The position numbers and the translations under genes are program-made. This document shows positions 489-62,862 of a DNA stretch of 64,000 nucleotides, one piece after another. Origin of the DNA: Candidatus Poribacteria bacterium (GTDB lineage Bacteria; Poribacteria; WGA-4E; WGA-3G); contig OZ244821.1 in the NCBI GenBank assembly GCA_965220325.1, forward strand, positions 4,381,924 through 4,445,923, read 5' to 3'. The notes under the pieces are model-generated. The model ran no database searches, was not told where the DNA came from, and saw only the letters and a list, made by a program, of their open reading frames with translations. The stretch's first letter is position 1, and the number at the start of each line of letters is the position of its first letter.

Positions 489-496
489 GATGCCTT

Positions 497-2361: not shown

Positions 2362-2885
2362 CTTTCTTTCCTTCCTTGGCGTGGACGTTGCATATCCTCC
2401 TTACAGATGAGGTTAACGCTAACTCCATGGTTTGCAAGCGCAGCCATAAATTGAAGCCATCCTCTATCTATCGCCAAGAGAATTGGCGGAGTTTGTCCAG
2501 TATCGCGTTTGTGTGCCAGAGCAACGGCAATGAATTTTCTGTCATCAGAATCAAAACTAATTAATACATTGTCATCGGGAAATTCTTCAAAATCAGTCCC
2601 ATTTCCAGCCAATGATGTAATATGTACCATTGTGCAGATCTCTGGGTTTCCAAGATTTTGTAGTAACCTTTTCACAAAGAGATCGCCAATGCCTTTTCGG
2701 GTGTTTGGACGCGTATTATCCTGGTACTCTCCCAAAATTCGCCTTTTGTTGTCAATAACCACCTTTTCATGTTGGTCAATAATTTGTTGAATTCGCTCTT
2801 GACAACGGTCTCTACAATCTTTACGTTTGTCATCTGTATCATTTGCGATCACAATAACGTTCGTATCTACAATAACAGCGTCCAT
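2358..2885 (-). CDS. PIN-like nuclease candidate, paralog 2, 175 aa
   Basis: MDAVIVDTNVIVIAND...ISFDSDDRKFIAVALA has the same motif architecture as the 497-1048 protein (about 40% identity by eye). The start ATG overlaps the TAA of the upstream ATPase by 1 nt (TAATG at 2883-2887). Confidence 0.5.
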   Translation of the reverse strand: MDAVIVDTNVIVIANDTDDKRKDCRDRCQERIQQIIDQHEKVVIDNKRRILGEYQDNTRPNTRKGIGDLFVKRLLQNLGNPEICTMVHITSLAGNGTDFEEFPDDNVLISFDSDDRKFIAVALAHKRDTGQTPPILLAIDRGWLQFMAALANHGVSVNLICKEDMQRPRQGRKER

Positions 2886-4234
2886 TAACCCTCCGCTCTC
2901 TTTTGACGTTCTCTTTGTGCTTCTGTCATAGCAAACAGATCTCCCATTTCGTCCCCAAAGAAATTTTCGGGCCAGTTCGCTATATTACCGAATTCATCCA
3001 TTTCTAACTTGTCAATTTCAGAAATACCTTCTTCATTACGGCAGAAATAGAGGGCAGTTTTATCAACGCTAATCTTTTCCTCAGCAATACGCCGCTGCAA
3101 CCGGTTTAAGAGGTGTTCGCTGTGGCTCTCCACCAAAATCTGAAGGTTGCGTTCCGTAATAACTTCTATCAGTAGGTCTGCAAGTTGGGATTGAACCTTC
3201 GGATGGAGATGCATGCCCGGTTGTTCCAAGATTAGTGTAGAACCCTCTGGAGCATAATAGCAATGCACTAACACTGGCAGAAATTGTGCTAACCCGTAAC
3301 CCATGTCAGCTAGCGTGACCTTCGCGCTATCAGGTGTCTTTTGAATAAGGACATCATAATCCCGATCTGTGCCTACACTACTCCGTTTAATAGAAAAGGC
3401 ATAACCAAGATCCATTTCTCGGAGCCACCAAGAGATTCGCTTCTCAATAGAGACATTTTTTCCTTCATAAGGCGTTGTTCGCTGATCCACGCGAGCGTTG
3501 AGTAGAGAGTCAATCATATTTTCGCCGCTTTGCCCGATGCTTTCAGGATGTGTTCCTTCCCAATGGTAGATACGTTTCGGTTGGACGCGAGTCGGACCGA
3601 GCGGATAGACGTGAGCAAATAGTCTCCTAAATTCAAATGCAAATCGGGTTATTGGATCGCGGCTTGGGTCAGGATGGTGGGATTGACCATAGATTTTTCC
3701 TGAGAAATTTCCCGTTATGACCTGCCCCTTATTTCCCGATTTAGTACGGGGACCAAAGACTATAGAAGGAGTGCTGAAATCACCGTTTACAACTTGCTCT
3801 TCATTTTCAGATTTAACGTGGTAATGACCTTTTTCAACAGAGACTCTGTTCTTTCTGCAAAAAATAGTAGCATTAAAGGTAAAACTCTCAACATTTAACG
3901 AAGCATCAATATAACCATTGAACTGATCACGGAGAGGGATAGTAAACGGCTCCTGGACCTTACATCCAAATTCCAACTCAAGCAAGGCATCTTCTTTATG
4001 CCCATGAATCACTTCACGGAAATTGCCGAGATTAACGAGAGATCCTTCATCACCGAAGAAGATAATTTCATTTAAATCTGGACGCTCTGCGGTCTGTTTA
4101 AGCAGCAGGAGCATCTGCAACAGGCTGCTCTTCCCAGAACTATTAGTCCCGAAAAAGCCTGTCAACGGTGCAAGTTTCACCTCGCCACTATCTTTCCACG
4201 ATTTGAAATTTTTCATCCGTATATGTGTAATCAT
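2885..4234 (-). CDS. ABC-type AAA_15/AAA_21-like ATPase with DUF3696-like C-terminus, copy 2, about 449 aa
   Basis: Start re-assigned to the ATG at 4232-4234 (MITHIRMKNFKSW, matching the paralog MITHIHVKNFKSW). It has a GGAGG Shine-Dalgarno 8 nt upstream; the ORF-track start at 4321 lacks an RBS. Walker A GTNSSGKSS; C-terminus LILEQPGMHLHP...ESHSEHLL...NWPENFFG. Confidence 0.7.
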   Translation of the reverse strand: MITHIRMKNFKSWKDSGEVKLAPLTGFFGTNSSGKSSLLQMLLLLKQTAERPDLNEIIFFGDEGSLVNLGNFREVIHGHKEDALLELEFGCKVQEPFTIPLRDQFNGYIDASLNVESFTFNATIFCRKNRVSVEKGHYHVKSENEEQVVNGDFSTPSIVFGPRTKSGNKGQVITGNFSGKIYGQSHHPDPSRDPITRFAFEFRRLFAHVYPLGPTRVQPKRIYHWEGTHPESIGQSGENMIDSLLNARVDQRTTPYEGKNVSIEKRISWWLREMDLGYAFSIKRSSVGTDRDYDVLIQKTPDSAKVTLADMGYGLAQFLPVLVHCYYAPEGSTLILEQPGMHLHPKVQSQLADLLIEVITERNLQILVESHSEHLLNRLQRRIAEEKISVDKTALYFCRNEEGISEIDKLEMDEFGNIANWPENFFGDEMGDLFAMTEAQRERQKRAEG

Positions 4235-4351
4235 TTTTTCTGCCTCCGTATTAACTCTATTATACGCAATTTCACGAGAAAATTCAAGCGGATCAATATA
4301 AAGTAGAACCAAGATCCACATCGAAAATTGAATGATCCTGAAATGAGATTT

Positions 4352-4381
4352 GACTTGTGTTGCAAATATATGCTATAATTT
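4352..4381 (+). promoter_or_regulatory. sigma-70-like promoter (TTGACT - 18 nt - TATAAT) for the Rpn-family gene, in the divergent intergenic region
   Basis: ttgacttgtgttgcaaatatatgctataat lies 24 nt upstream of the AAGGAAA RBS and the ATG at 4405. Confidence 0.4.
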
Positions 4382-4404
4382 GCTAAAATAGAAAAGGAAA
4401 TAGA

Positions 4405-5325
4405 ATGGCGATTTTTGATACCCTTACCAAAACGCAAGCACAAACACACCCCATGGACTTCGTCAATTACTGCCTAAACTTTGAGCAAGACGAGGCTACT
4501 TTCGTTGAATTGATCGTACCGGAGCAACCTACGGTTGAAATGCACCAGGCAGATATCGTCATCAAAGTAGAACGCAACGGTCAAGAGATTCTGGTCCATT
4601 TCGAGTTTCAAACCACCGACAGTTATGATCCTGAGATGTCTCTGAGGATGGCAGGTTATATCATTCGGTTGGTTGAAACGTATCGGTTGCCGGTGTATTC
4701 AAGTGTTATCTACCTTCGACCGGATGCGGGTCGAAGGGACCGTGGCGTTTATGTGCAGAACATAGCGGAACATCAGATTTTCATTGAATATAAGGTTTTT
4801 CGGCTCATTGAGATGGACGGGCAGCGGATCCTTGATGCCAAACCTACAGGATTGCTCCCTTTCACGCCGCTGATGAAACGTCCGGCGGGTGTAGATGCTG
4901 AGCAATGGCTGCGCCGGTGTATCCAAACCGCCGATAGCGTTGATGTCTCGAACAAACCAGCGTACCTCGGCACCTTGGCGGTTTTGGGAAATTTAGTCTA
5001 TGAATCGGAAGTAATTTCACGTATCATTTCGGAGGAAACCATGCAGCAACGTAATATTATTGAATACTGGACAGAGAAAGCCACAGCAGAAGCACACCAA
5101 CAAGGCCTCAAGCAAGGCCTCGAGCAAGGTATGAGAGAACGGGCCCTTGAAGACATTCTTGAAGCATTGGAACTCCGATTACAGCCCGATGCTGCGAGCA
5201 CCTTCAAGCCCATATTAGAAACGATTGAGGATTCCCAACGTCTCAAGCAGCTGTTTCGCGCCGCACTCTTAGCTGAAAGCACAGAAGACTTCGCACAGGT
5301 TTTAGCGGCAGACAGAGGTGTATAA
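4405..5325 (+). CDS. Rpn-family recombination-promoting nuclease / putative transposase (PD-(D/E)XK, Transposase_31/DUF4351-like)
   Basis: ADIVIKVE...ILVHFEFQTT gives the D...E-x-Q catalytic motif of the Rpn/YhgA family. The C-terminal QQGLKQGLEQGMRE repeat region is typical of DUF4351 tails. A good RBS (aaaaggaaataga) precedes the ATG. Confidence 0.65.
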   Translation: MAIFDTLTKTQAQTHPMDFVNYCLNFEQDEATFVELIVPEQPTVEMHQADIVIKVERNGQEILVHFEFQTTDSYDPEMSLRMAGYIIRLVETYRLPVYSSVIYLRPDAGRRDRGVYVQNIAEHQIFIEYKVFRLIEMDGQRILDAKPTGLLPFTPLMKRPAGVDAEQWLRRCIQTADSVDVSNKPAYLGTLAVLGNLVYESEVISRIISEETMQQRNIIEYWTEKATAEAHQQGLKQGLEQGMRERALEDILEALELRLQPDAASTFKPILETIEDSQRLKQLFRAALLAESTEDFAQVLAADRGV

Positions 5326-5378
5326 CTAATTATCCGTGTAATCCGAGCTTCAGACATTGCATAACCTGACAGGTTAGG

Positions 5379-8063
5379 CTACAAAATCTTATACTCTTTC
5401 ATCACCTCATCGCCGTAGTGATTGATGACTTTTACTGCGATTTTGCCGGTTTCAGGTTTTGCAAACGGTAGACTCTCTGTCCGATAAAGTGCTTCCCACG
5501 CCTCCGCGTCAATTTCCGAATTCAGGGCGCGCTTCAGCTGCTTATAAGGCTCATCCTCACCCGTGAAATAGGCATGTCGCACAAAAAACGCTTCACCGTT
5601 ATAAGCAGTATCAATGAACCAGCAAGCGATGTCTTCCGGTGTGTCGGAGCGGGTTAACCCCTGCTTTGGATCGTATACATCCACGCCCAAAAGTTTCACA
5701 GAGTGTGTCCCATCTTCATGATTCACAATCTCGACATCCGGTTCTCCAAACACCATGAACAGATTGCCTTGACCTGTGTTTTTAAGTTCGCGCACCATTA
5801 ACTCAGGACTCATCTTAACCGGTAGGATGGTAAGCCGTCCCATGCGTGTGTCCTCACCGGCGGTATAGCCTTCAAACGCAAAACCGGCAATAATGAGTAA
5901 ATCAAATCGCGGGGTTCGGCGCGCTGCTTCCTTCGCAGCCTCGTTTATCCACTGGCTACCCACAGTAATGGATTGGGGAGCGATACTAATAGCGACATTG
6001 GGCATATTGTTATCTGCATCGGTATACGCACCTTCTGCATGTAACCACTCACCGGGCAGTTCCTCCAACCAATCAAAGGTAATGCGCTGCCCCTGAAGGC
6101 GGTTTTGCACACCTCCTGTTTTCAGATGTTCAAGGATATGCTGGTGATAATCTTGTGAAACATCTGGGGCAGCAGGCGTTGGCGCAGCAGTCTCTGCATC
6201 AATAGAATCAAGCACGAAATGTGGCGATAAACTTTCTACAGTGAACGGACCTGTGACGCGAACCCGTTTTTTGTCTTCATGCGGTTGATCGTAGAGTATC
6301 TCTTTTTTTGCACGCCGTGCAGTTGAGGCATCCATGGCAAGTTGTCGTTCACGTTTGAGGTTGAGCCATTGACGATGTAAATTCTGGAATTCGGAGTCCC
6401 ATTCACTATCAGTCTCTGCTGGCACTTCCCACTCTTCCCAGTTTTGCCCCATGAGACGGTTCATTTCAGCACGCAGCGGATCCAGCTTTGCTGCATATTC
6501 GATATAGATGTCGTCAACCTCTGTGTTATTTGCCATGTCTGAGAGACTGATATCCGGGGCTGTTTTGTAAATAAAACCCTCCTTGATGTCGTCTGTATTT
6601 TCAAGACGATAGTAGGGATATTTGGCAGATATGAGGCGCGTACGTGCCAGTGCAAGTGCGACGCGTGAGGTATCTACTGTTATCCATCGTCTGCCCCACT
6701 GCTCTGCAACATAAGCAGTTGTGCCGCTACCACACGTCGGATCAAGCACGAGATCTCCAGGGTCCGTTGCCATGAGTACGCACCGTTGAATTACCTTAGG
6801 GTGAGTCTCTACAACGTACTTTCTTCCAGAACGACCTCCTGCTGTATCTATCCATAGGTTAGTAATCGGGTTCCCTGGTGAATCAACTGCATATCGGATA
6901 TAACGCAAGGCACTTCTTTTTCCAGTAAGTCTTTCCTGCTTTGCAAGTCGATTTAAACCTTCATTGCTCGCACTCCACGTTCTGGAACCAGGTGGAGTAA
7001 AAGTTTTTCCTTGAAATTCATATTCATCAGCATAACCTTGAGAACTCTGTGACGATACTGAAAGGTTTATAAATCTTCTGCTTCCTGGTGGCAAAAGCCC
7101 TGGATTTTCTTGCTCATCCCTTGTCATTCCACGCCTCGTTCCGTTTTCTAACTCAACCTGGGTGTAAGATTTAAGCAGAGGATCAGCTATGCGTTCATCC
7201 CATTCCATCCAAAGTTGTCGATACTTCACCATTTCCTTGTCTTTCGCATACCATAGGATATAATCTGATACTGACGCTAAGGAGGTAGATGAAGTCATAT
7301 TCGTACGAGTCCATGTAATTGTAGAGATAAAATTATTATCTCCGAAGATTTCATCTAATAAGCATCTAACACGGTGAACGTTCTCATCGCTAATCTGAAT
7401 AAAGATACTGCCGCTATCCGTTAGCAATTCACGGGCAACAGTAAGGCGATCGCGTAAATAAGCAAGGTAAGAATGGATGCCGAGTTCCCATGTATCTCGA
7501 AATGCTTTAACCTGTTCTGGTTGTGGTGTAACATCTTCTGCACCAGTATCACCAACTTCATTTTTGCGAGTGCTGACCTGCCAATTGCTGCTGAATTTAA
7601 TCCCGTACGGCGGATCAAAATAGATTATCTGCACCGCACCTTTGAGATGTTCTTTTTCGGCAAGCGAGTTCATCGCCGTAAGTGAATCACCTAAGATAAA
7701 ACGGTTGTGCCAGTTTTGTTCGTGTTCGTAGAATTCGATTTTTTGGTTGAAATCAAGACCGTCGAAACCTTCAAAGAGCAACTCTATCTGCTCTGATTCT
7801 CGCCGCTTTTGTGCGCGAAGGTTTTCAATAATCGCTTGGGGTTGGATATGTTCTTGCGTGTAGATAGGTACGGCTGGCACTTCAAGATCGCTATCGTTCT
7901 GTTGGTCCTTGCCTTTCCAGACGAGTTGCGGGTCAAGTGCTACGTCGCGCGGGTAACGGGTGGGTGCGTTTTCTTCATCTTCAGCGAATCCGCTTAATTC
8001 TTGGGTCGGGTTGTTCGGAAGTGTGTCAGGGTGTTCGTAATGGTCAATCGGTTTTTTCGGCAT
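5379..8063 (-). CDS. Beta-class N6-adenine/N4-cytosine DNA methyltransferase (Type III Mod-like), ~894 aa, with a C-terminal domain of unknown function
   Basis: Motif IV IIYFDPPYG lies about 290 aa before motif I TCGSGTTAYVAEQWGRRWITVD, the beta-class order with an intervening target-recognition domain as in Type III Mod. Start re-assigned to the ATG at 8061-8063 (MPKKPIDHY), which has an AAGGAG RBS; the ORF-track start at 8213 has none. Confidence 0.75.
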   Translation of the reverse strand: MPKKPIDHYEHPDTLPNNPTQELSGFAEDEENAPTRYPRDVALDPQLVWKGKDQQNDSDLEVPAVPIYTQEHIQPQAIIENLRAQKRRESEQIELLFEGFDGLDFNQKIEFYEHEQNWHNRFILGDSLTAMNSLAEKEHLKGAVQIIYFDPPYGIKFSSNWQVSTRKNEVGDTGAEDVTPQPEQVKAFRDTWELGIHSYLAYLRDRLTVARELLTDSGSIFIQISDENVHRVRCLLDEIFGDNNFISTITWTRTNMTSSTSLASVSDYILWYAKDKEMVKYRQLWMEWDERIADPLLKSYTQVELENGTRRGMTRDEQENPGLLPPGSRRFINLSVSSQSSQGYADEYEFQGKTFTPPGSRTWSASNEGLNRLAKQERLTGKRSALRYIRYAVDSPGNPITNLWIDTAGGRSGRKYVVETHPKVIQRCVLMATDPGDLVLDPTCGSGTTAYVAEQWGRRWITVDTSRVALALARTRLISAKYPYYRLENTDDIKEGFIYKTAPDISLSDMANNTEVDDIYIEYAAKLDPLRAEMNRLMGQNWEEWEVPAETDSEWDSEFQNLHRQWLNLKRERQLAMDASTARRAKKEILYDQPHEDKKRVRVTGPFTVESLSPHFVLDSIDAETAAPTPAAPDVSQDYHQHILEHLKTGGVQNRLQGQRITFDWLEELPGEWLHAEGAYTDADNNMPNVAISIAPQSITVGSQWINEAAKEAARRTPRFDLLIIAGFAFEGYTAGEDTRMGRLTILPVKMSPELMVRELKNTGQGNLFMVFGEPDVEIVNHEDGTHSVKLLGVDVYDPKQGLTRSDTPEDIACWFIDTAYNGEAFFVRHAYFTGEDEPYKQLKRALNSEIDAEAWEALYRTESLPFAKPETGKIAVKVINHYGDEVMKEYKIL

Positions 8064-8142
8064 AGAATCTCCTTTGCTGTTGGCTAAAGATGATGCCTCA
8101 TTTTTTTCGTGAATGCTTGCGAATCTAAATACGTTGGTAGAT

Positions 8143-8520
8143 TCATGGGCGGACGATCTGTTGTTGTTTGAGTGCTTCGATTTCTTGTGTGAGTGTCTCA
8201 ATCTGTTTTTCAAGAGTCTGATCTTTTCTGCTACGCCTGCTTGCTAAGATGCCCCACACTGTTGCACCGATGGCAAGAATCGCTAAAGGGATACCAATGC
8301 AAGCGATAATGATGTTATTGAGTCTGTCGAAATTCTTTTCAAGGCTCGCAAATTTGTCGTCAACTCCCTGAAATTTGTCGTCAATCTTTTCATTTAGATT
8401 CTTAATTTCGGTTTTTATCACCGCGATTTCGGTCTCTACATCCATCTGTGGTGTTTGACAGAGTGCTGGAAACCCAGCGATAGCACCTAAAAGTAGTGAA
8501 AGTGCAAGAACATATTTCAT
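8143..8520 (-). CDS. Hypothetical secreted/membrane-anchored coiled-coil protein
   Basis: Start at the ATG at 8518-8520 (MKYVLALSLLLGAIAGFPALC signal peptide) with an AAGGAG RBS. Central coiled coil; C-terminal TM helix IIIACIGIPLAILAIGATVWGILA. Confidence 0.4.
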   Translation of the reverse strand: MKYVLALSLLLGAIAGFPALCQTPQMDVETEIAVIKTEIKNLNEKIDDKFQGVDDKFASLEKNFDRLNNIIIACIGIPLAILAIGATVWGILASRRSRKDQTLEKQIETLTQEIEALKQQQIVRP

Positions 8521-8576
8521 CAAATGTCTCCTTTTAGAAAGAGTCAATCACATTTGCTTTTGTGTGGCAAAAAATG

Positions 8577-8858
8577 CTAGCGTGTAATGCACACCCTACG
8601 GGGGTTGAAGAAACGGGAAAATTGCTGCGTCTCCCACACAATAGATCCGATGTCGCTGCCTTTGTTACGATTACAATATGAACACGCGTAAGCGAGATTA
8701 CTTTCTTGGGTAGAGCCTCCATGTTTCTCGCTAAGAATGTGATCTATCTGACAACCAAAGTAAGTATCCTCTTCACGAATCAGACAGTATTCACAAAGGC
8801 TTTTGGCGCGGGCCCTAACCAACTCTCGTAAGGCAACGGGGATATAAGTCTTACTCAT
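8577..8858 (-). CDS. HNH endonuclease (small, 93 aa)
   Basis: CEYC...CQIDHILSEKHGG...NLAYACSYCNRNK carries the HNH and zinc-ligand motifs. Confidence 0.7.
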   Translation of the reverse strand: MSKTYIPVALRELVRARAKSLCEYCLIREEDTYFGCQIDHILSEKHGGSTQESNLAYACSYCNRNKGSDIGSIVWETQQFSRFFNPRRVCITR

Positions 8859-9093
8859 TTTTTAAATAGTATCGAGCGCGAGATTTAGCGAGCCGCATCA
8901 GATGTTCAAGTTGCAAACAGTGATTGAGTTCTGCTGTTTCTTCAGAGGTTAGTCCTGTCGTCTTTTCGCGGTGGATGAGATCTGAAAGACGCTCTTTTGC
9001 CGCCTCGGATGGACAAAAGTCTATTAAATTTTGCGGGGTTGTCCCTGCTGCAATAAAATCAACGATTTCTTGATATGCAGGTGATATGTACAT
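8851..9093 (-). CDS. Small conserved hypothetical protein, likely partner of the HNH endonuclease (overlaps its start by 8 nt)
   Basis: 80-aa helical protein (MYISPAYQEIVDFIAAG...LEHLMRLAKSRA). The 8-nt overlap with the HNH gene suggests a two-gene module. Confidence 0.4.
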   Translation of the reverse strand: MYISPAYQEIVDFIAAGTTPQNLIDFCPSEAAKERLSDLIHREKTTGLTSEETAELNHCLQLEHLMRLAKSRARYYLKNE

Positions 9094-9110
9094 TGAATTC
9101 TCCTTATATG

Positions 9111-9524
9111 TTACAGCTGATCTTCAATCCATTCATCGTCGTGGGCAGGATTATAGATGAGCCCCTTTTTAATATCGAGACAGAGATCCAGGTATTCCAG
9201 GACCATGTGTCCGACAAGGACAGGCAGCCCGGCCGGTAGATCCGCCACTTCCATCGTCCCCTCCCGTTCTAAGACGGTATATCGGACATCTGAATAAACT
9301 GTCCGCGTAACGATACCGTTTGTGGTCTGTGCCCTTCTACTTCTAACGGGAGTCAAGCCGAGTTGTTCGATAAGCGGCTTCGGTAAGGATAATCCAGTCG
9401 CACCGGTATCAACAATCGCGTCTTCAACGGTCACTTGCCGGATATCCTCAGGTTTAATAACACCAGCTTCAGCTAAAAACTGATCTTTTCGATTTGCGAG
9501 TTCTATTTTTGTTGTGTGTTTCAT
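9111..9524 (-). CDS. Retropepsin-like (clan AA) aspartic protease
   Basis: AIVDTGATGLSLP is the classic D-T/S-G-A active-site motif; about 137 aa. Confidence 0.6.
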   Translation of the reverse strand: MKHTTKIELANRKDQFLAEAGVIKPEDIRQVTVEDAIVDTGATGLSLPKPLIEQLGLTPVRSRRAQTTNGIVTRTVYSDVRYTVLEREGTMEVADLPAGLPVLVGHMVLEYLDLCLDIKKGLIYNPAHDDEWIEDQL

Positions 9525-9592
9525 TTTTTTTCCCTCAGTTTACGATAAAATTCTTTGTGACATAGCATATGCTGCTGGCTAAAGATGATACC

Positions 9593-9775
9593 TCATTCTT
9601 TCAAGCGTTCAAGTTCCGCTTGGAGTCGCGCGACTTCTGCTTCTGCGCTCTCCGCGCGTGCTTTCGCGATCTCCATCGGCGTTTGGAGCCACTGCTCCCT
9701 AACCGGATCGTAAACCTCTAAACGCCTTTCACGGATATGGAAATCTAAACCGAAATATACACAATAGTGTAGCAA
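9593..9775 (-). pseudogene. Possible remnant of an Uma2-family (DUF820) endonuclease C-terminus
   Basis: The 60-aa ORF ends LEVYDPVREQWLQTPMEIAKARAESAEAEVARLQAELERLKE, which resembles the conserved C-terminal tail of cyanobacterial Uma2 proteins. No upstream domain is present. Confidence 0.2.
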
Positions 9776-9835
9776 AAAAAAACGCCGCTGTCAAATTTAA
9801 TTTTTAAGGAACCTTCCTTATTTTTACTTTACTAA

Positions 9836-10060
9836 AGTTTAGACAATTTTAAGAGGTCCAAGGTTTTTGATCGGATACGCTCTTTTGTACCATAGGAGAC
9901 CGTTGGTTTCCTGTGGTCTCTTTGTACCATAGGCTGTATGAAGATTAAATAAATATTTCGGTAATCGTTGAAGATCGCGAGCGCAGCTCGCTCCTACCAA
10001 GAGGCTATTGATACATTACCGAATTAAATTCTGAAACTTCATTTAGCCTGTGGCAGTGAT
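9836..10060. repeat. Dispersed intergenic repeat, copy A (shares blocks with 58005-58090), with an internal duplication
   Basis: Shared blocks actaaagttt(a/g)gacaattttaa, ctcttttgta(c/g)cataggctgt and tagcctgtggca. ctcttttgtaccatagg occurs twice in copy A, and gatcggatacgctc recurs at 9871 and 10059. Confidence 0.5.
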
Positions 10061-10300
10061 CGGATACGCTCTAACGCTGCCAAAATATTTACACACTCAA
10101 AATAAAAAATAAATTTGCATCTCTACATTATATATGTTATCATATACATACTAATTGAATTATATTAATCTCAAGAAAAAAAGATAAAAACAACCCTTCA
10201 CCCACACAAAGGAGCACAAAACGTAGACTCGGTTAAAACGAAACTATGACTTCTGGTAGGAGCGAGTGTTTTTGCTGGGGTGTTTCTTGTCGCTCGCGAT
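9971..10300. repeat. Imperfect terminal inverted repeats bounding a ~330-bp AT-rich non-coding element (MITE-like)
   Basis: The left arm gatcgcgagcgcagctcgctcctaccaaga (9971-10000) is the reverse complement, with a few mismatches, of the right arm tctggtaggagcgagtg...cgctcgcgatc (10251-10300). Confidence 0.4.
10115..10143 (+). promoter_or_regulatory. Orphan sigma-70-like promoter (TTGCAT - 17 nt - TATCAT) inside the non-coding island
   Basis: ttgcatctctacattatatatgttatcat; no annotated ORF lies downstream before the terminator at 10358-10387. Confidence 0.3.
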
Positions 10301-10357
10301 CTGTACTTTTGCCTAACGACTCAGAGTCACCCCAAACGCAAATCGAAAATCGCAAAT

Positions 10358-10387
10358 CGAAAATGTTACACTTTTCGCCTTTTTTTT
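10358..10387 (+). terminator. Rho-independent terminator-like hairpin (weak AU-rich stem) plus T8 tract
   Basis: cgaaaa tgttacac ttttcg cc tttttttt; together with the promoter at 10115 it would delimit a ~230-nt transcript. Confidence 0.3.
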
Positions 10388-10463
10388 CAAATACGAAACC
10401 ATAACACAATTACCTCTGAACCCTTACAATGACTAAGTTTATCGCAATATTCTATCCATACCC

Positions 10464-10487
10464 AATGTTACACTGGTGTAACATTTT
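10464..10487. promoter_or_regulatory. Perfect palindrome AATGTTACAC-TG-GTGTAACATT (candidate operator; the half-site also occurs in the terminator loop at 10362)
   Basis: The 10-bp arms are exact reverse complements. The motif AATGTTACAC occurs three times within 130 bp. Confidence 0.35.
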
Positions 10488-10883
10488 AAGCACAGATGCA
10501 CTGCCTCTTAAAGTCCCTGATAACCTGACACCTGCGATCACAACCGGAACCTGAAACGCCCGAACTTGAACCAATAGACCCTAATCCATCGCAGAAAAAA
10601 ATATAACGCAAATTTTTGCGTACAAAAAAAATTAAAGTGCCTTTAGGACAAAAATCACAGCAGCCGAACGCATCCATGTTGAAATTGTTATACTTGAACA
10701 GGAGGCTAAATTCTGATAGAATATCTCCTAAGCAGGAAAGAAGAGGCATTTTTACATTCCTTTCAAAACACTTCTACGTTTTTATGAAAGGATGCCTCTT
10801 TTCTGCTTGTTGTCATCTTAATTCGTAAAATTGTCCAAACTATAGTACCAATTGCGAAAACACAACTGAAAAGGAGACACACA

Positions 10884-11147
10884 TTGGAAAAAATACGCGG
10901 ATTGATTTCTCTATTGGAATCTGGCGTTGAAGACTATGACGCGCAGGTAAAGGTTCTCCAGTCAGAACGCCTGAAATATATCCGGCTCTCTATAACGGAC
11001 GGGTTCGGCACGGAAGAAGGCGACTCTAAACAGTCGTGGCTACTTCACCTCAAGCAACTCGAAGATTCACTCGCCCTGAGACGGAAAACCATACGACAGG
11101 CAGTTGTAGATACCGCAGAAGATATTCAGAAAGAGGAAAACGCATAA
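10884..11147 (+). CDS. Small hypothetical helical protein (87 aa, TTG start) translationally coupled to the downstream CRTAC1-like gene
   Basis: AAGGAG (10871-10876) lies 7 nt before the TTG at 10884. The stop TAA overlaps the ATG of the next gene (TAATG at 11145-11149). Confidence 0.45.
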   Translation: MEKIRGLISLLESGVEDYDAQVKVLQSERLKYIRLSITDGFGTEEGDSKQSWLLHLKQLEDSLALRRKTIRQAVVDTAEDIQKEENA

Positions 11148-45744: not shown

Positions 45745-46050
45745 CTAAGTTGTTCTCATCCCTGTTAAGACGACTAACGGTTCTTTGCTCGTGACGGTAA
45801 TTGAATGATAGGTATTCGCAGGCACATCAATTCGGTCACCGCTCTCAACGGTTTCCTGCTCATCAGCGACCTTTACATCTGCTGTGCCAGATAGTACGCA
45901 TACGACCTCATCTTGCGCGTGGATATAGTCGAGATAGGCACCCCCCGGACGACCTGTCCATTCATAGGCATTGAAGCCTTCGGTTTCCAACTGTCGCTTT
46001 AAAGCGTCGGTATCTGCATGCTGATCTGACCAACGTGATTTCCAATTCAT
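45745..46050 (-). CDS. Cupin-domain protein
   Basis: A small beta-barrel with the DEVVCVLSG...YHSI pattern; overlaps the higA stop by 4 nt. Confidence 0.55.
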   Translation of the reverse strand: MNWKSRWSDQHADTDALKRQLETEGFNAYEWTGRPGGAYLDYIHAQDEVVCVLSGTADVKVADEQETVESGDRIDVPANTYHSITVTSKEPLVVLTGMRTT

Positions 46051-46388
46051 TTTCCAACTCCAAGGACATCTGTTGTATTTTGTCTGTCGTTATTTTCTGA
46101 TAGTGTACCCCGCTCTTTCACATAATGTCTTAACCGGTCTCGAAACTCGGAAAGGCATGCCAAGCTGAAATGATCGTCGTCTCCGTTCTTAATTTTTGAG
46201 ATGTCAGTTGGATCAACTGCCAGCAGGTTCGCTGCCTTTACACTTCTCAACCGAGACTGCTTGAGAAGTGTAAATACCTCAAAACTTAACTTCGTCCGAA
46301 ACGACAAGGCTTCGGCTTCTTCATCAGAAAAACCTATATCTTTAAACACGTTCCCACTACTTTTCTCAAACTTCACATCATCACACAT
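46047..46388 (-). CDS. higA: HigA-like XRE-family HTH antitoxin
   Basis: SGNVFKDIGFSDEEAE...SVKAANLLAVDPTDISKIKNG...FSLACL. Confidence 0.6.
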   Translation of the reverse strand: MCDDVKFEKSSGNVFKDIGFSDEEAEALSFRTKLSFEVFTLLKQSRLRSVKAANLLAVDPTDISKIKNGDDDHFSLACLSEFRDRLRHYVKERGTLSENNDRQNTTDVLGVGK

Positions 46389-46731
46389 ATTCTGCCTCCG
46401 TTTCTCTTGCTCGTTTTAAGCGTCGCTTGATAAGGTCTATATCTCTCTTGGGCGTTTTTATCCCTCGCGTTGATTTTTTCTCAAAACAATGCAATACATA
46501 CACTCGCTCTCGAATACTGACCGTGTAAACAGCCCGATAAGCATTGGTAGAGTGCCGGGCAACAATCTGCTGTACCCCCGTCCCGAGGCCCCGCATCGGT
46601 TTGGCAGCTGGATGTTTATCCCCGAGCTGTGCGTATTCTAACGCTTTACCGATTGTTCGTCTGGCCTCTTTCGGGAATTGCCGCAGGCGTTCACGGGAAT
46701 CCGCAACCCATATAACGTCTTTCATATACAC
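46381..46731 (-). CDS. higB: HigB / Gp49-like (RelE/ParE superfamily) toxin
   Basis: AYRAVYTVSIRERVYVLHCFEKKSTRGIKTPKRDIDLIKRRLK matches the Gp49/HigB family. The toxin gene is upstream and overlaps the antitoxin by 8 nt. Confidence 0.6.
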   Translation of the reverse strand: MYMKDVIWVADSRERLRQFPKEARRTIGKALEYAQLGDKHPAAKPMRGLGTGVQQIVARHSTNAYRAVYTVSIRERVYVLHCFEKKSTRGIKTPKRDIDLIKRRLKRARETEAEYV

Positions 46732-46743
46732 TTCTAAAAGGTC

Positions 46744-49443
46744 TTAAAGTGGTTCTAACCGGACAGGACACACTTTGAGTTCAGCCGTGTGCGTGACCGG
46801 ATCGTAACCCGAACCTGTCAATAGATTAACAGGGACATCCGCGAAACTAAAACTGGCGAAAACGGTGCCGCGCGGCGAGCGGTTCGTCGCTTTTACCTTG
46901 ATGTTAATACTGCCACGGGCGCTACTCATTTTGCACCATTCACCGTCTGTCAATTCCCACCTCTCAATGTCGGCAGGATTGACTTCCAGCGATTCTTCTG
47001 GCAAGAGGTAATCAATGCCTTGTGCTCTGCCTGTCTGCGTTCGTGTATGATAGGACGCTAAGCGTCTGCCTGTTGTGAGCCATACGGGGAACTCATCGCT
47101 GATTGTCTCCGCGGGGTCTCGGTAATGAACGTTTGAAAAGAGACCGCGCCCGTTGACGAATTCTTCTTCATGGAGCATTGGGGTCCCCGGATGCCCTTTA
47201 TAGGGTACGGGCCACTGGTACTCGCCTTTCTCAACGCGATCCCAATCTAAGCCTGCGTAAATCGGTGAAACCTGACAGAGTTCGTTGAAAATCGGTTTCG
47301 GTGCATCAAAATCAAAACCTTTAAAACCGAGCCGTTGTGCTATTTGGCAGATAATCCACCAGTCAGGTTTTGCGACACCTGGTGGCGGTACAGCGGCGCG
47401 GACCCGTTGGACGCGACGTTCTGTATTTGTGCATACGCCATCTGTTTCACCCCACGCAGTCGCTGGCAACACGACATCGGCAAGCTCAGCCGTCTCCGTG
47501 AGGAAGATGTCAATAACAACGAGGTGATCCAATGAACGGAGTGCATGCTCGCAATGCTCTCGATCTGGGTCGGAGAGCAACGTGTTTTCACCATCAATCA
47601 GCATCGCGCGGATGCTTTCTCCACAAAGTTCTAAAGCAGTTACTTTGGTAATCCCCTTCTCTAAATCGATTTCTCTGCCGTATTCTGCTTTGAATTTCTT
47701 TTGATACTTCGGCTCCGTAACAGATTGGAAGCCGGGATAGTTGTTCGGGAGTGCGCCGCTGTCTCCTGCGCCTTGAATATTATTTTGCCCACGCATCGGA
47801 TTGATGCCGGTTCCCTCGCGCCCGACGTTACCCGTCATCAAGGCGATGTTACATAGACTCCGTACGTTCTCAACACCACAGATATGCTCCGTGATTCCCA
47901 AAGTATAATAGATGGCACCTTTGTTCGCACTTCCGTACCATATCGCAGCGGTTTCAATGTCTTTTGCGGGGACACCTGTAATTGTTTCTGCCCATTCCGG
48001 TGTCCACTGACTGATGTGTTCAAAGAAGTCGTCAAATCCGGTTGTGCGATTTTCGATGAAATCCTCGTCAATCAAACCTTCACGTGCGATGACGTGTGCG
48101 ATTCCGAGGAGCAGTGCGGTATCCGAACCGACCCGGAGCGGTAAGTAGAGATGCGACATCTCTGCCAATCCGATGCGTCTCGGATCCGCTACGATGAGTT
48201 TCGCACCGCGGGCGATTGCTTTCTTAAGCCCTGTCGCTGCGACGGGGTGGCATTCGGTCATATTTGTGCCGATACAGAAGATCACATCCGGTTTCTGCAT
48301 ATCGACGAGCGGGTTAGACATGGCACCACGTCCGATTGTCGCTGCCAGACCGGCAACGGTTGGGGCGTGTCAGGCGCGGCTGCAGTTATCGATGTAGTTA
48401 GTGCCGAATCCAGCGCGGATAAACTTTTGCATGAGGTAGGCGGCTTCACTCGGTGCGCGCCCGGAGGCGATGCCGTAGATACTGTGTCTCCCGTGTTGGG
48501 TATTGACCTTCCGAAATCCGTCAGCGGCTTTATTCAGTGCGTCCTCCCATGTCGCTTCGTGGAGTTCGCCATCGGTGCCACGGATGAGTGGCGTTTTCAA
48601 GCGATCAGGATGCTGTACGAAGTCGTAAGCGAACTGCCCTTTAACGCAGAGTGCTCCCTGATTCGCAGGTCCGTCCATCGCGGGATGGATGCCGACAATC
48701 TTTTCATTTTTCGTGAGCACATCAACGGAACAACCGACACCACAATAGGGACAGATGGTGCGGGTTTTGTTAGGAACGGTATCGCCCACCTCATCAGTTG
48801 CGCGGAGTGCTTTTTTGTCCGCGAGAGCACCGGTCGGACAGGTCTGTATACATTGTCCACAGAAGGTGCAGGCAGAATCCTTGAGGTGTCCATCGAATTC
48901 GGTTGTAATCTGCGTATGGAAACCGCGGTTCATGATATTGATGGCATGGTCACCCTCTTGCTCAGCGCAGACGCGGACGCATCGGTAGCACGAAATGCAA
49001 AGTTCATAATCTCGGAGGATGAACGGATTGTCGTCATCAGCTTTACTGATGCCGGATTTCGCACCTATTATTTTTGAGGCATCAATATCGTACCTATCTC
49101 GGAGGTTCGAGAGTTCGTCTGACGCATAACCTCGTAATGGGGATACCTCAACTTCACGGTTCTCACTCACAACCATCTCCAGCAGCGTCTTCCGATACGC
49201 TTCTATCGTATCGGTTGTTGTCCGCACGACCATTCCGGGGGTCGCTTTCGTTGTACAGGATGCGACAGGATTCCGCGCCCCTTCTAATTCAACGATGCAG
49301 AGACGACAACCGCCGAAAGGTTCAAGCCTCGGATCGTAACAGAGCGTCGGAATCTCTTTTTCTTGTCGTTGCGCGACCTCAAGAATCGTTTCGCCTTCAC
49401 TAAAGGCGACTTCAATCCCATCAATTTCCATCTTATGCGTCAT
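46744..49443 (-). CDS. fdhA: Formate dehydrogenase alpha subunit (NuoG-like 2Fe-2S/4Fe-4S N-terminus + molybdopterin oxidoreductase), a selenoprotein with in-frame TGA (Sec) at 48370-48372
   Basis: The ORF-track pieces 48370-49443 and 46744-48321 are in the same frame and read ...YIDNCSRA-U-HAPTVAGLAATIGRGAMSNPLVD... across the TGA. This is the conserved CxR-U-H Sec motif of FDH catalytic subunits. An fdhF-like SECIS hairpin follows immediately. Confidence 0.8.
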
Positions 49444-49482
49444 GGTAGATACTCCAAAGCCAGAATTACATATTTACAGAGG

Positions 49483-50499
49483 CTACTCCTCTTCCTTTTC
49501 AGTGAAGTCGATTTGTGGCACTTTCAACTCACCAGCAAGGATTTTCGATTTCGCTTCTTCAACGGCTTTTTGAACATCTTCCGGCACCTTATCCTTTAGC
49601 GTAGGACTGTATGTGAGGGTGATCGCTTCGTCCGTCAGCATGTTGAAAGTATAGATTTTCGGTTTGAACTTACCTTCCTTAATAATCTTGGCAATTTGTA
49701 CAAAAGCGTTGGGTGTAATCACAGCATTCGCAATCACAGTTGGGGATATGTCGCTCTTGTCGCGATTTGCGCCGAAGGTGTATACGATTTTACCGTCTTT
49801 TTGCGCGAGTTCAGCTGCCTCATAAGCGCCGAGTCCGGCTGCGTCGGCATTCGGAAAGATAAAGTCAACACCTTCGTTAATCTGTGCAAGTGCGAGTTCT
49901 TTTCCTTTACCGATGTCTTCCCAGTTTCCGACGTATACATAGGACACGTCTACTTCAGAGTTGACACTTTTCGCGCCGCCCTCAAACGCCATAAATGTGC
50001 TATTGACAGACGGGATGTTCTGTCCGCCCATGACACCAATTTTATTCGTATTGGTCATCATGCCTGCGATCATCCCTAATAGATAGGCTGCCTGCTCGAC
50101 ACGGAAGTTCGCTGGCGAAATATTGTCGGTGATGGTGCCGCCGGAAGAGGTGATGAAAATCGTCTCAGGGAAGTCGACAGCGACGGCTTTGGCGGGGTCT
50201 TGAAACTCGTATCCGTGTCCAAACACTAAGTTATAACCGTCAAGTGCGTAAGAACGGAATTGTTCTTCTTGATCGGATGGGGTTCGTGTTTCGGCGTGGC
50301 TGATTTCTGCGCCGAGTTCCTTTTCGATGGCGACGAGACCTTCGTAGGCCAAAGCGTTCCATCCGGCATCACTAATTGAGCCGGGAAGCAACATAGCAAC
50401 CTTGAATTTCTCATGTCCTTTTGCGTCGAGGTCGATATCCGTAACGAGTATGAATCCGATTGCGAAAAGACATAAGACGGTCCAACAAAAGTTTTTCAT
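49483..50499 (-). CDS. BMP-family (PnrA/Med-like) ABC transporter substrate-binding lipoprotein
   Basis: Signal peptide; KFKVAMLLPGSISDAGWN...FGHGYEF. Confidence 0.8.
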   Translation of the reverse strand: MKNFCWTVLCLFAIGFILVTDIDLDAKGHEKFKVAMLLPGSISDAGWNALAYEGLVAIEKELGAEISHAETRTPSDQEEQFRSYALDGYNLVFGHGYEFQDPAKAVAVDFPETIFITSSGGTITDNISPANFRVEQAAYLLGMIAGMMTNTNKIGVMGGQNIPSVNSTFMAFEGGAKSVNSEVDVSYVYVGNWEDIGKGKELALAQINEGVDFIFPNADAAGLGAYEAAELAQKDGKIVYTFGANRDKSDISPTVIANAVITPNAFVQIAKIIKEGKFKPKIYTFNMLTDEAITLTYSPTLKDKVPEDVQKAVEEAKSKILAGELKVPQIDFTEKEEE

Positions 50500-51571: not shown

Positions 51572-53215
51572 ATGGAAAAAGAAAACATCCTTGAACTTCG
51601 GAATGTTACAAAGACCTTCGGTGATTTCGTCGCTGTTGACGGTGTTGATTTTGCGCTGCGAGCGGGTGAGATTCACGCGATTTTAGGTGAGAACGGCGCG
51701 GGTAAGTCTACACTGATGAATCTTATTTATGGACTCTATCAACCGTCGGATGGACGCATCTATGTTACAGATCGTGAAGGTTGGCGGCGTAGACTGCATG
51801 CGAAATCACCACGTGACGCGATTGTTAACGGTATCGGCATGGTGCATCAGCACTTTATGCTAATTGAAAATCTGACTGTCGCTGAGAACATCGCGTTGAG
51901 TCTCGGGCAATTAAAAGGAGATCAGAAAGATCGGATGGAAGGATGGAAGGATGGAAGGATGGATGCCTCTCAGTCTTCCATCCTTCCACGCTTCCTGTCT
52001 TCTCTTCCGTTCCCTGATTTTTGGTTTAAGAAAGCGGAAGCGATTCGTATCACGCAAGCACTCTCTGAGCAGTTCGGTTTAACTGTCGATCCGACAGCCC
52101 TCGTACGCACCCTGTCGGTCGGGTTGAAACAGCGGGTTGAAATTTTAAAGGCATTGGCGGTTGATGCCCGGATTCTCATTCTTGATGAACCGACGGCTGT
52201 CCTGAGTCCGCAAGAGGTGGAAGGCTTCTTTAGAATTCTACGCAACCTCCAAGCCGACGGTCGCGCGATTATCTTCATTAGCCACAAAATGAAAGAGGTT
52301 CTAAGCATCAGCAATAGGATTACTGTGTTAAGGCGTGGCAAGAAAGTCTATCTCGGTCCGACAGGTGAACTAACGGCACGTGAACTCGCGCGCGAGATGA
52401 TCGGGGAAGAAATCAACGAGGTTCAACCTTCTGTAGGGGGCAGGTTACCCAACTCGGACGAAAACGATCCCGCAGATAGCGTGCTACAACTCGAAAATCT
52501 AACGGTACTCGGTAGCCGAAACGAAATCGCGGTCTCAGATGTCTCGATGGAAACCCGTCGCGGTGAAATTGTCGGCGTTGCTGGGGTTGATGGCAATGGA
52601 CAGCGCGAACTCGCCGAGGCGATCATGGGTTTACGGCACCGGACATCTGGAACGATAAGCATTTCAGGTGCCGATCCACGGGGGACAAAAGCGGTCCGGC
52701 AACGCGGGGTCGGTTACATCCCTGAAGATAGACAGACGACAGGTATCATCGCGTCGTTCTCGGTTACAGAGAACCTCTTGCTGAATGTGACGCATTTGGA
52801 GAGGACAGCGCGTTGGAATATCCTCAACGAAACCCGAAAACGGGGCATAGCAAAACACCTCATCGCTGATTACGACATCCGTCCGCCTGTCGCTGGCATT
52901 CCCGCCGCTGCACTCTCCGGCGGCAATCAACAGAAAGTTGTCCTCGCCCGCGAAATCTCGCTCCTACCCGATCTACTTATTGCCGTTAATCCGACACGCG
53001 GCTTAGATGTCAACGCGGCTCGTTACGTACACGAGAACTTGTTGGCACAACGCGACGCAGAAAAGTCTGTGCTCCTCATTTCAACAGAGTTAGATGAGGT
53101 CTTGCTCTTGAGTGATCGGCTTTTTGTGATGTCAAGGGGTAAGTTGATTGAGGCGACCGCACAACGCAACGACATTGAGGCACTCGGGTTGTTAATGACG
53201 GGGGAAGGGTTATAA
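51572..53215 (+). CDS. ABC transporter ATP-binding protein with two nucleotide-binding domains (BMP/sugar-type)
   Basis: Two Walker A motifs (GENGAGKST, GVDGNGQRE) and two signature regions (LSVGLKQRVEILKAL, LSGGNQQKVVLAREI). It contains an in-frame repeat insert at 51934-52000. Confidence 0.85.
   Translation: MEKENILELRNVTKTFGDFVAVDGVDFALRAGEIHAILGENGAGKSTLMNLIYGLYQPSDGRIYVTDREGWRRRLHAKSPRDAIVNGIGMVHQHFMLIENLTVAENIALSLGQLKGDQKDRMEGWKDGRMDASQSSILPRFLSSLPFPDFWFKKAEAIRITQALSEQFGLTVDPTALVRTLSVGLKQRVEILKALAVDARILILDEPTAVLSPQEVEGFFRILRNLQADGRAIIFISHKMKEVLSISNRITVLRRGKKVYLGPTGELTARELAREMIGEEINEVQPSVGGRLPNSDENDPADSVLQLENLTVLGSRNEIAVSDVSMETRRGEIVGVAGVDGNGQRELAEAIMGLRHRTSGTISISGADPRGTKAVRQRGVGYIPEDRQTTGIIASFSVTENLLLNVTHLERTARWNILNETRKRGIAKHLIADYDIRPPVAGIPAAALSGGNQQKVVLAREISLLPDLLIAVNPTRGLDVNAARYVHENLLAQRDAEKSVLLISTELDEVLLLSDRLFVMSRGKLIEATAQRNDIEALGLLMTGEGL
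51934..52000. repeat. Palindromic micro-repeat inserted in-frame in the ABC ATPase gene: (GGATGGAA)x3 plus the inverted copy TCCATCCTTCC
   Basis: ggatggaaggatggaaggatggaaggatgg atgcctctcagtc ttccatccttcc: an 11-bp stem and ~14-nt loop. It encodes ...MEGWKDGRMDASQSSILPRF... Confidence 0.55.
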
Positions 53216-53418: not shown

Positions 53419-54504
53419 ATGATATCGAAATTAGGCAACATATTCAACAGATTAAAAAGAATCAACATTATTCATTGGCTGGCGGCACCGGTTATAATTT
53501 TGGCGAGTGCGTTTATTGTCAACGCTATTATAATGCTGCTCTGTCACTATAACCCCTTGGATGCCTACTTAGCTGCCGTGGATGGTGCCTTCGGTGGTAA
53601 GCGGAAATTCGGGGAGACGTTGGTGAAAAGCACTCCGTTTCTGATGACTGGACTTTCCGTCGCGATGGCGTTTCGGTGCGGGATTTGGAACATCGGTGCT
53701 GAGGGGCAGTTTCTGATAGGAGCGCTAGCAGCGACATGGTTTGGAACGAAACTCGCGCCTCTTTTTCCCGAAAGTCCATGGATAGCGGTACCGATGTCGC
53801 TCGGTATCGCTATACTTGCGGGTGGAATGTGGGGGCTGATCCCCGCAGTGCTCAAGGTAGCACGCGGTGTCAACGAAGTTATCAGTACGATTATGCTGAA
53901 CTACGTCGCTATCCATCTCATGAATATGATGATAGATGGCGGTCCCTTGCAGGAGGCATCGCAGCGTGGTCCACAGAGTGACCGGATTGCGGAGTGGGTA
54001 TTCCTACCCCGGTTTTTCCCGCCGCATCGGATCCATCTCGGCATTGTTATCGCTGTGGTATTAGCTATTGTCCTTACATTCATCCTTTTTCGGACAGCGT
54101 TTGGCTACCAACTCCGGGCAGTTGGAGAGGGTGCGGCTGCAGCGGAGGCAGCAGGGATTTCGGTCGTGCATAACACGCTTCGTGTCTTTTTCATTAGTGG
54201 TGCACTCGCGGGCCTTGGCGGCGCGATTGAACTCACAGCACTGACACGTCGGTTATTTCTTAACTTCTCACCCGGATACGGTTATACAGCGATTGCGGTT
54301 GCATTGTTAGCAAAGTTGAATCCGTTGGTGACAGTTGCCGCGGCACTGTTGTTTGGCGCGCTATCGACCGGTTCATATAGTATGCAACGCAAGGTCGGTA
54401 TCTCTGACAGAGTAACGTTTGTAATACAAGCGACGATCCTCCTATTTGTTATCGGTTACGGTTCTATCCAGCTTTTCCGAAAACGTGCGTCTACACACTC
54501 TTAG
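53419..54504 (+). CDS. ABC transporter permease (BMP-family system, permease 1)
   Basis: Multi-TM with the family length; follows the ATPase. Confidence 0.8.
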   Translation: MISKLGNIFNRLKRINIIHWLAAPVIILASAFIVNAIIMLLCHYNPLDAYLAAVDGAFGGKRKFGETLVKSTPFLMTGLSVAMAFRCGIWNIGAEGQFLIGALAATWFGTKLAPLFPESPWIAVPMSLGIAILAGGMWGLIPAVLKVARGVNEVISTIMLNYVAIHLMNMMIDGGPLQEASQRGPQSDRIAEWVFLPRFFPPHRIHLGIVIAVVLAIVLTFILFRTAFGYQLRAVGEGAAAAEAAGISVVHNTLRVFFISGALAGLGGAIELTALTRRLFLNFSPGYGYTAIAVALLAKLNPLVTVAAALLFGALSTGSYSMQRKVGISDRVTFVIQATILLFVIGYGSIQLFRKRASTHS

Positions 54505-61932: not shown

Positions 61933-62862
61933 ATGTTTGAAGAGATTCTTTCGGCAATGATTCGTGGGGCGACACCGCTCCTACTCGCAGCGCTCGGTGA
62001 GGTCATCTCCCAACGTGCCGGTGTACTGAACATCGGCATTGAAGGGATGATGCTCATCGGCACGTTTTTTGGGATGGTCGGATCCTTTTATATGGCGGAA
62101 TTCGCGATGTTCGCACCATGGTTTGGACTTTTAATCGCAGGACTTAGCGGACTTGCCGCTGCCGCGCTCTTTGCGTTATTCGCTATCCGACTGCGTGGCG
62201 ACCAAGTTATCGTTGGTACAGCGATGACACTTCTGGCATTGGGTTTGACTGAGGTTATCTATCAACGGCTCTTCGGTGTAACAGGCATTGCGAAAGGCGT
62301 TCCTGCGTTTCAACAGATTGACCTGCCACTCCTCTCTAAAATCCCGTTTTTCGGACGTGCACTGTTTTCACATAATATTTTGGTTTTCATGACCTTCCTG
62401 CTGCTGCCGTGTGTCTATTTTTTCCTCTACCATACTCAACTCGGGTTGCGGATACGCGCCTGTGGCGAGCATCCGAAAGCGATTGCGACTGTCGGTTCGA
62501 GTGTTCTCCGTTTACGGACGCTTTGCCTGCTATTCGCGGGGACGATGGCGGGTATGGCAGGCGGCTATCTTTCACTTGCGGATGTCCCCTATTTTACACC
62601 TGGTATGACCCAGGGACGTGGGTTCATCGCGTTGGCGATCGTTATTTTTGGGAAATGGCATCCTGTGAAGGCTTGTGGTGCTGCGCTCCTCTTTGGACTC
62701 GGTTTGGCACTCGATGCGCGGTTCCAAGCGTTGGGTTTGGGAATCCCGCATCAGTTGTGGTTGATGTTACCGTATCTGCTTTGCTTAGCAGTGTTGGCGG
62801 GATTTGTCGGACGTACTGAAGCACCGCTTGCTTTGGGGAAGCCTTACGCGGAATCGGAATAG
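61933..62862 (+). CDS. ABC transporter permease (BMP-family system, permease 2)
   Basis: Multi-TM, 309 aa, the usual partner of the 53419-54504 permease. Confidence 0.75.
   Translation: MFEEILSAMIRGATPLLLAALGEVISQRAGVLNIGIEGMMLIGTFFGMVGSFYMAEFAMFAPWFGLLIAGLSGLAAAALFALFAIRLRGDQVIVGTAMTLLALGLTEVIYQRLFGVTGIAKGVPAFQQIDLPLLSKIPFFGRALFSHNILVFMTFLLLPCVYFFLYHTQLGLRIRACGEHPKAIATVGSSVLRLRTLCLLFAGTMAGMAGGYLSLADVPYFTPGMTQGRGFIALAIVIFGKWHPVKACGAALLFGLGLALDARFQALGLGIPHQLWLMLPYLLCLAVLAGFVGRTEAPLALGKPYAESE

Follow-up and report, generated by a model that had tools for sequence, protein, structure and literature searches.

The 64,000-nucleotide stretch analysed here, referred to as the window, comes from a Candidatus Poribacteria bacterium (contig OZ244821.1, positions 4,381,924 to 4,445,923). 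On its minus strand it carries a gene for the alpha subunit of a formate dehydrogenase (FDH) that contains an in-frame TGA. Minus-strand translation of positions 46744-49443 gives 900 codons, with codon 358 as the sole internal stop, and this TGA (48372..48370) sits in the context ...YIDNCSRA*HAPTVAGLAATIGRGAMSNP.... A mechanical list of open reading frames (ORFs) splits the gene into two pieces, 48370-49443 (357 aa) and 46744-48321 (525 aa), that share one frame. An earlier note on this DNA had given coordinates, a peptide and an RNA sequence, all of which were borne out by direct translation and reading. That note had proposed a single selenoprotein gene, and the data agree with it: the TGA corresponds to U140 of Escherichia coli FdhH and to the catalytic Cys in FdsA/FoDH1 enzymes, TGA is kept in 79/80 orthologues, and both halves of the gene are under purifying selection. 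We therefore consider it very probable that 49443..46744 (minus) is one intact FDH alpha gene whose UGA at codon 358 is decoded as selenocysteine (Sec). The gene and its parts are as follows.

46744..49443, minus strand: complete formate dehydrogenase alpha-subunit gene, 899 aa plus a TAA stop, read through the TGA (translation, Pfam, NCBIfam, PDB alignment, orthologues)
49452..49455, minus strand: GGAG motif resembling a ribosome-binding site, 8 nt before the ATG at 49443 (read from the sequence)
48823..49431, minus strand: NuoG-like N-terminal iron-sulfur region, 2Fe-2S Fer2_4 plus 4Fe-4S dicluster Fer4_Nqo3 (Pfam, dN/dS)
48370..48372, minus strand: in-frame TGA, codon 358, predicted selenocysteine and ligand of the molybdenum or tungsten (Mo/W) cofactor (FdhH U140 alignment, orthologue codons)
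46765..48768, minus strand: catalytic module, Molybdop_Fe4S4, Molybdopterin and Molydop_binding, which contains the TGA (Pfam, FdhH alignment)

Family, active site and conservation of the TGA codon

The read-through product has five Pfam domains, Fer2_4 (aa 5-77), Fer4_Nqo3 (140-207), Molybdop_Fe4S4 (226-278), Molybdopterin (281-703), and Molydop_binding (788-893), and PF04879, PF00384, and PF01568 each exceed their Pfam cut-offs. Because codon 358 falls within aa 281-703, the TGA lies inside the catalytic Molybdopterin domain. Against the NCBIfam model TIGR01591 (formate dehydrogenase subunit alpha) the protein reaches 750 bits, above the equivalog cut-off of 666.25, and it covers profile positions 1-671/672. 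The closest solved structures are the alpha subunit of Methylobacterium extorquens FoDH1 (7vw6, E 8e-204) and Rhodobacter capsulatus FdsA (6tg9), both matched over their full length; E. coli FdhH (1aa6) was also matched, with an E value of 1e-143. The alignment to the FdsA/FoDH1 alpha subunits runs over residues 4-898 with the same domain order. By these matches the protein belongs to the formate dehydrogenases with a Mo- or W-bis(molybdopterin guanine dinucleotide) cofactor and the FdsA/FoDH1 architecture, and catalytic activity is predicted.

As the earlier note had anticipated, alignment to FdhF and FdsA places the TGA exactly on the Sec/Cys active-site position, followed by the conserved His. 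The codon corresponds to the catalytic Cys of the FdsA/FoDH1 structures, in "C-t-R-l-C-H-a", and U358-H359 aligns with Sec140-His141 of the E. coli MG1655 fdhF product. U358-H359-A-P361 fits the U-H-x-P motif described as a feature of FDH alpha subunits (PMC13188914), and R551 corresponds to E. coli Arg333. C231, C234, C238, and C266 match the E. coli 4Fe-4S cysteines C8, C11, C15, and C42, and K268 matches Lys44. The protein thus shares with FdhH (fdhF, Sec140) the Sec-His pair, the 4Fe-4S cysteines, the Lys, and the Arg, at 38% identity over the catalytic module. However, FdhH, which works in the formate hydrogenlyase complex, has no counterpart of the N-terminal NuoG-like Fe-S region of about 225 aa. 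Conversely, the solved FdsA/FoDH1 enzymes (7vw6, 6tg9) share the whole architecture but have a catalytic Cys where the Poribacteria gene has UGA. The combination of Sec, an N-terminal Fe-S extension, and a NuoF-like beta partner occurs in the NADP-dependent Sec/W FDH of Moorella thermoacetica, an anaerobic acetogen. The N-terminus of the product (MTHKMEIDG...) shows no twin-arginine motif by eye, which, together with the NuoG-like domain, suggests a cytoplasmic enzyme.

To sample orthologues, one genome per species was scanned, which gave 80 loci (labelled L0xx); by title, 75 belong to Poribacteria, 2 to Latescibacterota, 1 to Gemmatimonadaceae, and 2 to "uncultured bacterium". Each of them matches residues 1-899 with 75-93% identity. 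The aligned codon is TGA in 79 of these orthologues and TGC in the remaining one (L075), which is the classical Sec/Cys pattern. Where synonymous divergence (dS) is unsaturated, the ratio of nonsynonymous to synonymous substitution (dN/dS) is about 0.04-0.05 in the N-terminal and 0.02-0.04 in the C-terminal half. The 16 codons that lead from the TGA to the next ATG encode the nearly invariant peptide HAPTVAGLAATIGRGAM, with Ser at one position in 2 orthologues.

The same codon leaves its mark on the databases. The best 120 matches in a collection of 5.8 billion proteins are all C-terminal fragments of 505-546 aa (mostly 525-537) that cover 56-60% of the query, so gene callers cut the orthologues at one common place. 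Every close homologue listed is accordingly stored as a "molybdopterin-dependent oxidoreductase" fragment of about 525 aa. Because of these truncated entries, a complete FDH would be overlooked or mis-scored when the metabolism of Poribacteria and related sponge symbionts is reconstructed. The splitting of selenoprotein genes at UGA is a long-known annotation artefact, and FdhA is the most widely distributed bacterial selenoprotein family. In this respect the locus is ordinary: it encodes a typical bacterial FdhA selenoprotein with the usual fdhF-like selenocysteine insertion sequence (SECIS), mis-annotated in its phylum, and it involves no new biology. Only two aspects are mildly unusual, namely the occurrence of Sec in an FdsA-type architecture and the loss of linkage to a diaphorase gene in the sponge-symbiont clade.

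The stem-loop downstream of the UGA

Immediately 3' of the UGA the RNA reads CAC GCC CCA ACC GUU GCC GGU CUG GCA GCG. Numbering the U of UGA as nt 1, it folds through the pairs C15-G33, G16-C32, U17.G31, U18-A30, G19-C29, C20-G28, and C21-G27 around the loop GGUCU. Three features were placed here.

48340..48358, minus strand: SECIS apical stem-loop, 7-bp stem and 5-nt loop, nt 15-33, beginning 11 nt after the UGA (fold, covariation)
48347..48351, minus strand: apical loop GGUCU, nt 22-26 (comparison with MG1655 fdhF, orthologues)
48317..48375, minus strand: sub-threshold match to Rfam SECIS_3, with a possible lower stem (RF01989 scan)

The bacterial SECIS consensus has a loop of 3-9 nt, an upper stem of 4-16 bp, and G in the first two loop positions (PMC13188914), with 16-37 nt from the UGA to the loop and a minimum free energy no higher than -7.5 kcal/mol (PMC13188914). 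The hairpin lies within all of these limits: its loop has 5 nt and begins with GG, its stem has 7 bp, the UGA and the loop are 18 nt apart (nt 4-21), and the folding energy is -10.1 kcal/mol for the isolated apical hairpin and -16.5 kcal/mol for nt 4-46. When 251 nt were scanned permissively against Rfam, RF01989 (SECIS_3) scored 54.6 bits (E 2.9e-12). The match runs the full length of the model (59 positions), taking in the UGA and the apical hairpin, and several of its lower-stem pairs are non-canonical. As the gathering score of this family is 63, membership of RF01989 was rejected. With Rfam at its gathering thresholds, there was no match anywhere in the 64-kb window.

The register of the element is identical to that of the E. 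coli fdhF SECIS. The E. coli sequence GGUUGCAGGUCUGCACC that the earlier note had quoted is correct against MG1655 fdhF, where it occupies nt 15-31; the corresponding nt 15-33 here are CGUUGCCGGUCUGGCAGCG. The two have the sequence GUUGC-GGUCUG in common, and G23 and U24 stand in the loop in both. They differ in that E. coli has a bulged U17 and a 4-nt loop, whereas the Poribacteria element has a U.G pair, a 7-bp stem, and a 5-nt loop.

The evidence that we regard as decisive for a SECIS, within what sequence comparison can provide, is evolutionary. Across 81 orthologues, 334 four-fold-degenerate sites of the gene are conserved, and their entropy averages 1.56 bits. Only 4 of these 334 sites are invariant (nt 18, 21, 27, and 30), and every one of them lies inside the stem. 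Codons 363-367 form the lowest five-site synonymous window of the gene, at 0.057 bits. The closing pair 15-33, formed by the wobble positions of one Thr and one Ala codon, is C-G in 59 of the 80 orthologues, G-C in 13, U-A in 2, U.G in 2, and mismatched in 4. When the 69 distinct orthologue sequences are compared, 98.8% of the cells of the apical helix are paired, and double-sided changes number 13 where 2.0 are expected, a value that 0/500 shuffles reach. The 7-bp/5-nt fold itself was recovered in 62/69 distinct sequences. The loop is GGUCU in 74 of the 80 orthologues, GGGCU in 4, and GGUUU in 2, and its GG is invariant in 81/81 sequences. An fdhF-like SECIS, as put forward in the earlier note, is thus upheld by the agreement with the consensus, by one covarying pair, by frozen synonymous sites in the stem, and by the sub-threshold SECIS_3 match. 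Binding of SelB to the stem-loop and its support of UGA decoding are predicted indirectly, from the one covarying pair and the frozen synonymous sites. The locus is also a clean natural example of an RNA structure that constrains synonymous sites.

Two further observations concern the surroundings of the codon. The two codons 5' of the UGA (CGU and GCC; 48373-48378, minus) have third positions of 0.10 and 0.43 bits, against the gene mean of 1.56, and the window itself carries the rare CGC in this codon pair. These near-fixed third positions suggest a constraint on the upstream context of the Sec codon. The sole TGC orthologue keeps the 7-bp SECIS-like hairpin (L075:11057-11119), with the loop GGUUU that is also found in a TGA orthologue; this locus looks like a recent Sec-to-Cys conversion.

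Selenocysteine machinery and alternative readings of the TGA

The following results weigh against this reading of the gene. Neither the 64-kb window nor the flanking sequence of the 80 related loci yielded selA, selB, selD, or tRNA-Sec. The SECIS_3 match is below the gathering score here, and 0/6 orthologous loci tested reach that threshold. The folding energy is no better than that of shuffled sequence (z -0.5 to -1.0), and the support for the hairpin therefore comes from its position, conservation, and covariation and not from folding energy. The lower stem (nt 4-9 with 40-46) is not conserved, as pair 5-45 forms in 43/80 orthologues and pair 9-40 in 33/80. It was consequently rejected as a conserved feature, and the functional unit is then the apical stem-loop at a fixed distance, as in E. 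coli. Finally, among the approximately 40 ORFs scanned in the window there is no diaphorase or other partner gene, which makes the electron acceptor a guess.

The search for the machinery took several routes. ARAGORN reported no tRNA in the window and no tRNA-Sec in the 80 loci, NCBIfam scans of about 40 window ORFs gave no selA, selB, or selD, and tblastn with E. coli SelA, SelB, and SelD had no match in the window and the 80 loci. Published counts for Poribacteria genomes are given in Table S4 of Slaby et al. 2017 (PMC5649159): for COG1921 (SelA), 2 in bin70, 4 in bin44, and 2 in WGA-3G; for COG3276 (SelB), 1 in each of bin70, bin44, and WGA-3G; and for COG0709 (SelD), 1 in bin70, 2 in bin44, and 1 in WGA-3G. 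Locus L076 belongs to Poribacteria WGA-3G; its orthologue has the TGA and is 92% identical. The presence of the sel genes elsewhere in the genome of the window, as expected in the earlier note, is predicted from these published counts. In addition, a 2026 survey lists Poribacteria among the phyla with Sec-type group 4 hydrogenases (PMC13582414). On this reading, the Sec codon implies a requirement for selenium and for functional selABCD genes in these symbionts.

Several other explanations of the in-frame TGA have to be considered. A pseudogene produced by a nonsense mutation, or a TGA that is an assembly error, would account for the stop that splits the ORF and would be in keeping with the lack of Sec machinery within the window. 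However, 79 independent assemblies at species level share this TGA, dN/dS is 0.02-0.05 in both halves, and the stop falls exactly at the Sec/Cys catalytic position and is followed by a constrained, covarying hairpin. Pseudogene or error is thus highly improbable. We give similarly little credence to the presence of two genes, one for an N-terminal Fe-S protein that stops at the TGA and one for a C-terminal molybdopterin protein whose start is the ATG at 48321. Automatic callers annotate every close homologue in this way, but the break would cut the Pfam Molybdopterin domain (aa 281-703) in two and take away the metal ligand, the 16 codons between TGA and ATG are conserved as protein and identical in all but 2 orthologues, and the one TGC orthologue reads straight through.

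A different possibility is that the UGA is recoded through the SECIS and SelB but that Cys is inserted, by a tRNA of the tRNA(ReC) type, or that another residue enters by near-cognate read-through. Such tRNA(ReC)-like tRNAs recode UGA with a SECIS in some bacteria (PMC13582414), and the TGC orthologue indicates that Cys is tolerated. Nevertheless, SelA and SelD, which are needed only for Sec synthesis, are reported in Poribacteria genomes, and a TGC codon would be simpler, yet TGA is kept in 79/80 orthologues; we consider insertion of a residue other than Sec very unlikely. A genome-wide reassignment of TGA to a sense codon (Trp or Gly) has in its favour only the in-frame TGA itself. TGA ends 8/44 other window ORFs, family-matched genes among them, and the window holds no other convincing candidate for TGA read-through, as a scan for further read-through pairs found only spurious out-of-frame pairs. 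The genetic code is therefore standard, and reassignment is so improbable that it can practically be set aside. On the comparative data and stop-codon usage, the pseudogene, split-gene, and reassigned-code readings were all rejected.

With the UGA read as Sec, SelB loaded with Sec-tRNA(Sec) would bind to the SECIS stem-loop within the coding sequence and bring this tRNA to the ribosome, competing with release factor 2. In the finished enzyme, the selenol of Sec358 is predicted to ligate the Mo/W centre beside His359 and Arg551, where formate would be oxidised or CO2 reduced. The sequence data establish that the gene is intact, where its Sec codon lies, which family it belongs to, and the fold and constraint of the SECIS, and from them Sec insertion itself, the metal, the electron acceptor, and the direction of the reaction in the cell are predicted.

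Electron partner and genomic context

From the catalytic centre, electrons would most likely travel by way of the Fe-S clusters of the N-terminus to a flavoprotein subunit of the NuoE/NuoF type and then to NAD(P)+. Evidence for such a partner comes from the related loci. A gene of 552-588 aa lies upstream of alpha on the same strand in 11/76 loci with enough upstream sequence (L067-L073, L075, and L078-L080), and in six of them it ends no more than about 120 nt from the alpha start. In the two of these genes that were scanned, those of L067 (8209-9885) and L078 (8277-9953), Pfam identifies a fused protein with thioredoxin-like 2Fe-2S, Nuo51 FMN-binding, and NADH_4Fe-4S domains. By its domain content, this product is a predicted diaphorase of the FdsB/FoDH1-beta kind. 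In 64 close loci there is no NuoE/NuoF-like gene upstream, and the clade of the window has a BMP-family binding-protein gene at that place. The locus thereby differs from the FdsA/FoDH1 type, as no beta, gamma, or delta subunit gene adjoins alpha in the window or in the 64 closest loci. Stand-alone beta homologues, 78-80% identical, were observed on 5-6-Mb contigs without a nearby alpha; they are not tied to the clade of the window.

The proposal of the earlier note that this is a soluble FDH linked to NAD(P) or ferredoxin holds in part. Its best relatives are the NAD-dependent FdsA and FoDH1 and 11 more distant loci have the NuoE/NuoF-like gene, but the window has none. Judged from homology, the mechanism with the best support for the family is that of a soluble, NAD(P)-linked enzyme, and we infer that it would also apply to this genome; the NuoE/NuoF-like subunit would then be encoded away from the alpha gene in this lineage. 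There is also a small chance that the sponge-associated clade, in which alpha has parted from the diaphorase gene and stays in the conserved block described next, departs from the classical NAD-linked FdsAB type. The alpha subunit might then use a different electron partner or, in an aerobic symbiont, catalyse formate or CO2 conversion by itself.

Most loci share one gene order: BMP-family ATP-binding cassette (ABC) binding protein, FDH alpha, a 101-aa cupin protein, and leucyl aminopeptidase. The window has the cupin gene at the following position.

45745..46050, minus strand: 101-aa cupin-domain gene, downstream neighbour of the FDH gene (Pfam Cupin_2, E 3.7e-11; just downstream in 66/80 loci)

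A Gp49/HigB-like toxin gene (46381-46731) and an HTH_37 antitoxin gene (46047-46388), both on the minus strand, are inserted between the FDH and cupin genes. At the same gap in the 80 related loci, the toxin is found in only 6 and the antitoxin in 13.

Further features were noted in other parts of the window. Positions 1-8213 are likely a defence island: the ORF at 2885-4321 weakly matches a MAD3-type AAA ATPase, and the 944-aa product of 5379-8213 carries a DNA adenine methyltransferase domain. The ORFs on either side have no family match. Positions 8200-11000 have no long gene and no Rfam match, and they hold only small ORFs, of which one is HNH-like (93 aa, 8577-8858) and one retropepsin-like (137 aa, 9111-9524) by sequence appearance. 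The genes of a BMP/PnrA-type ABC transporter lie scattered in the window and encode a binding protein (49483-50499), an ATPase (51572-53215), and permeases (53419-54504 and 61933-62862). The two permease genes are separated by unrelated genes for TPR and beta-propeller proteins.

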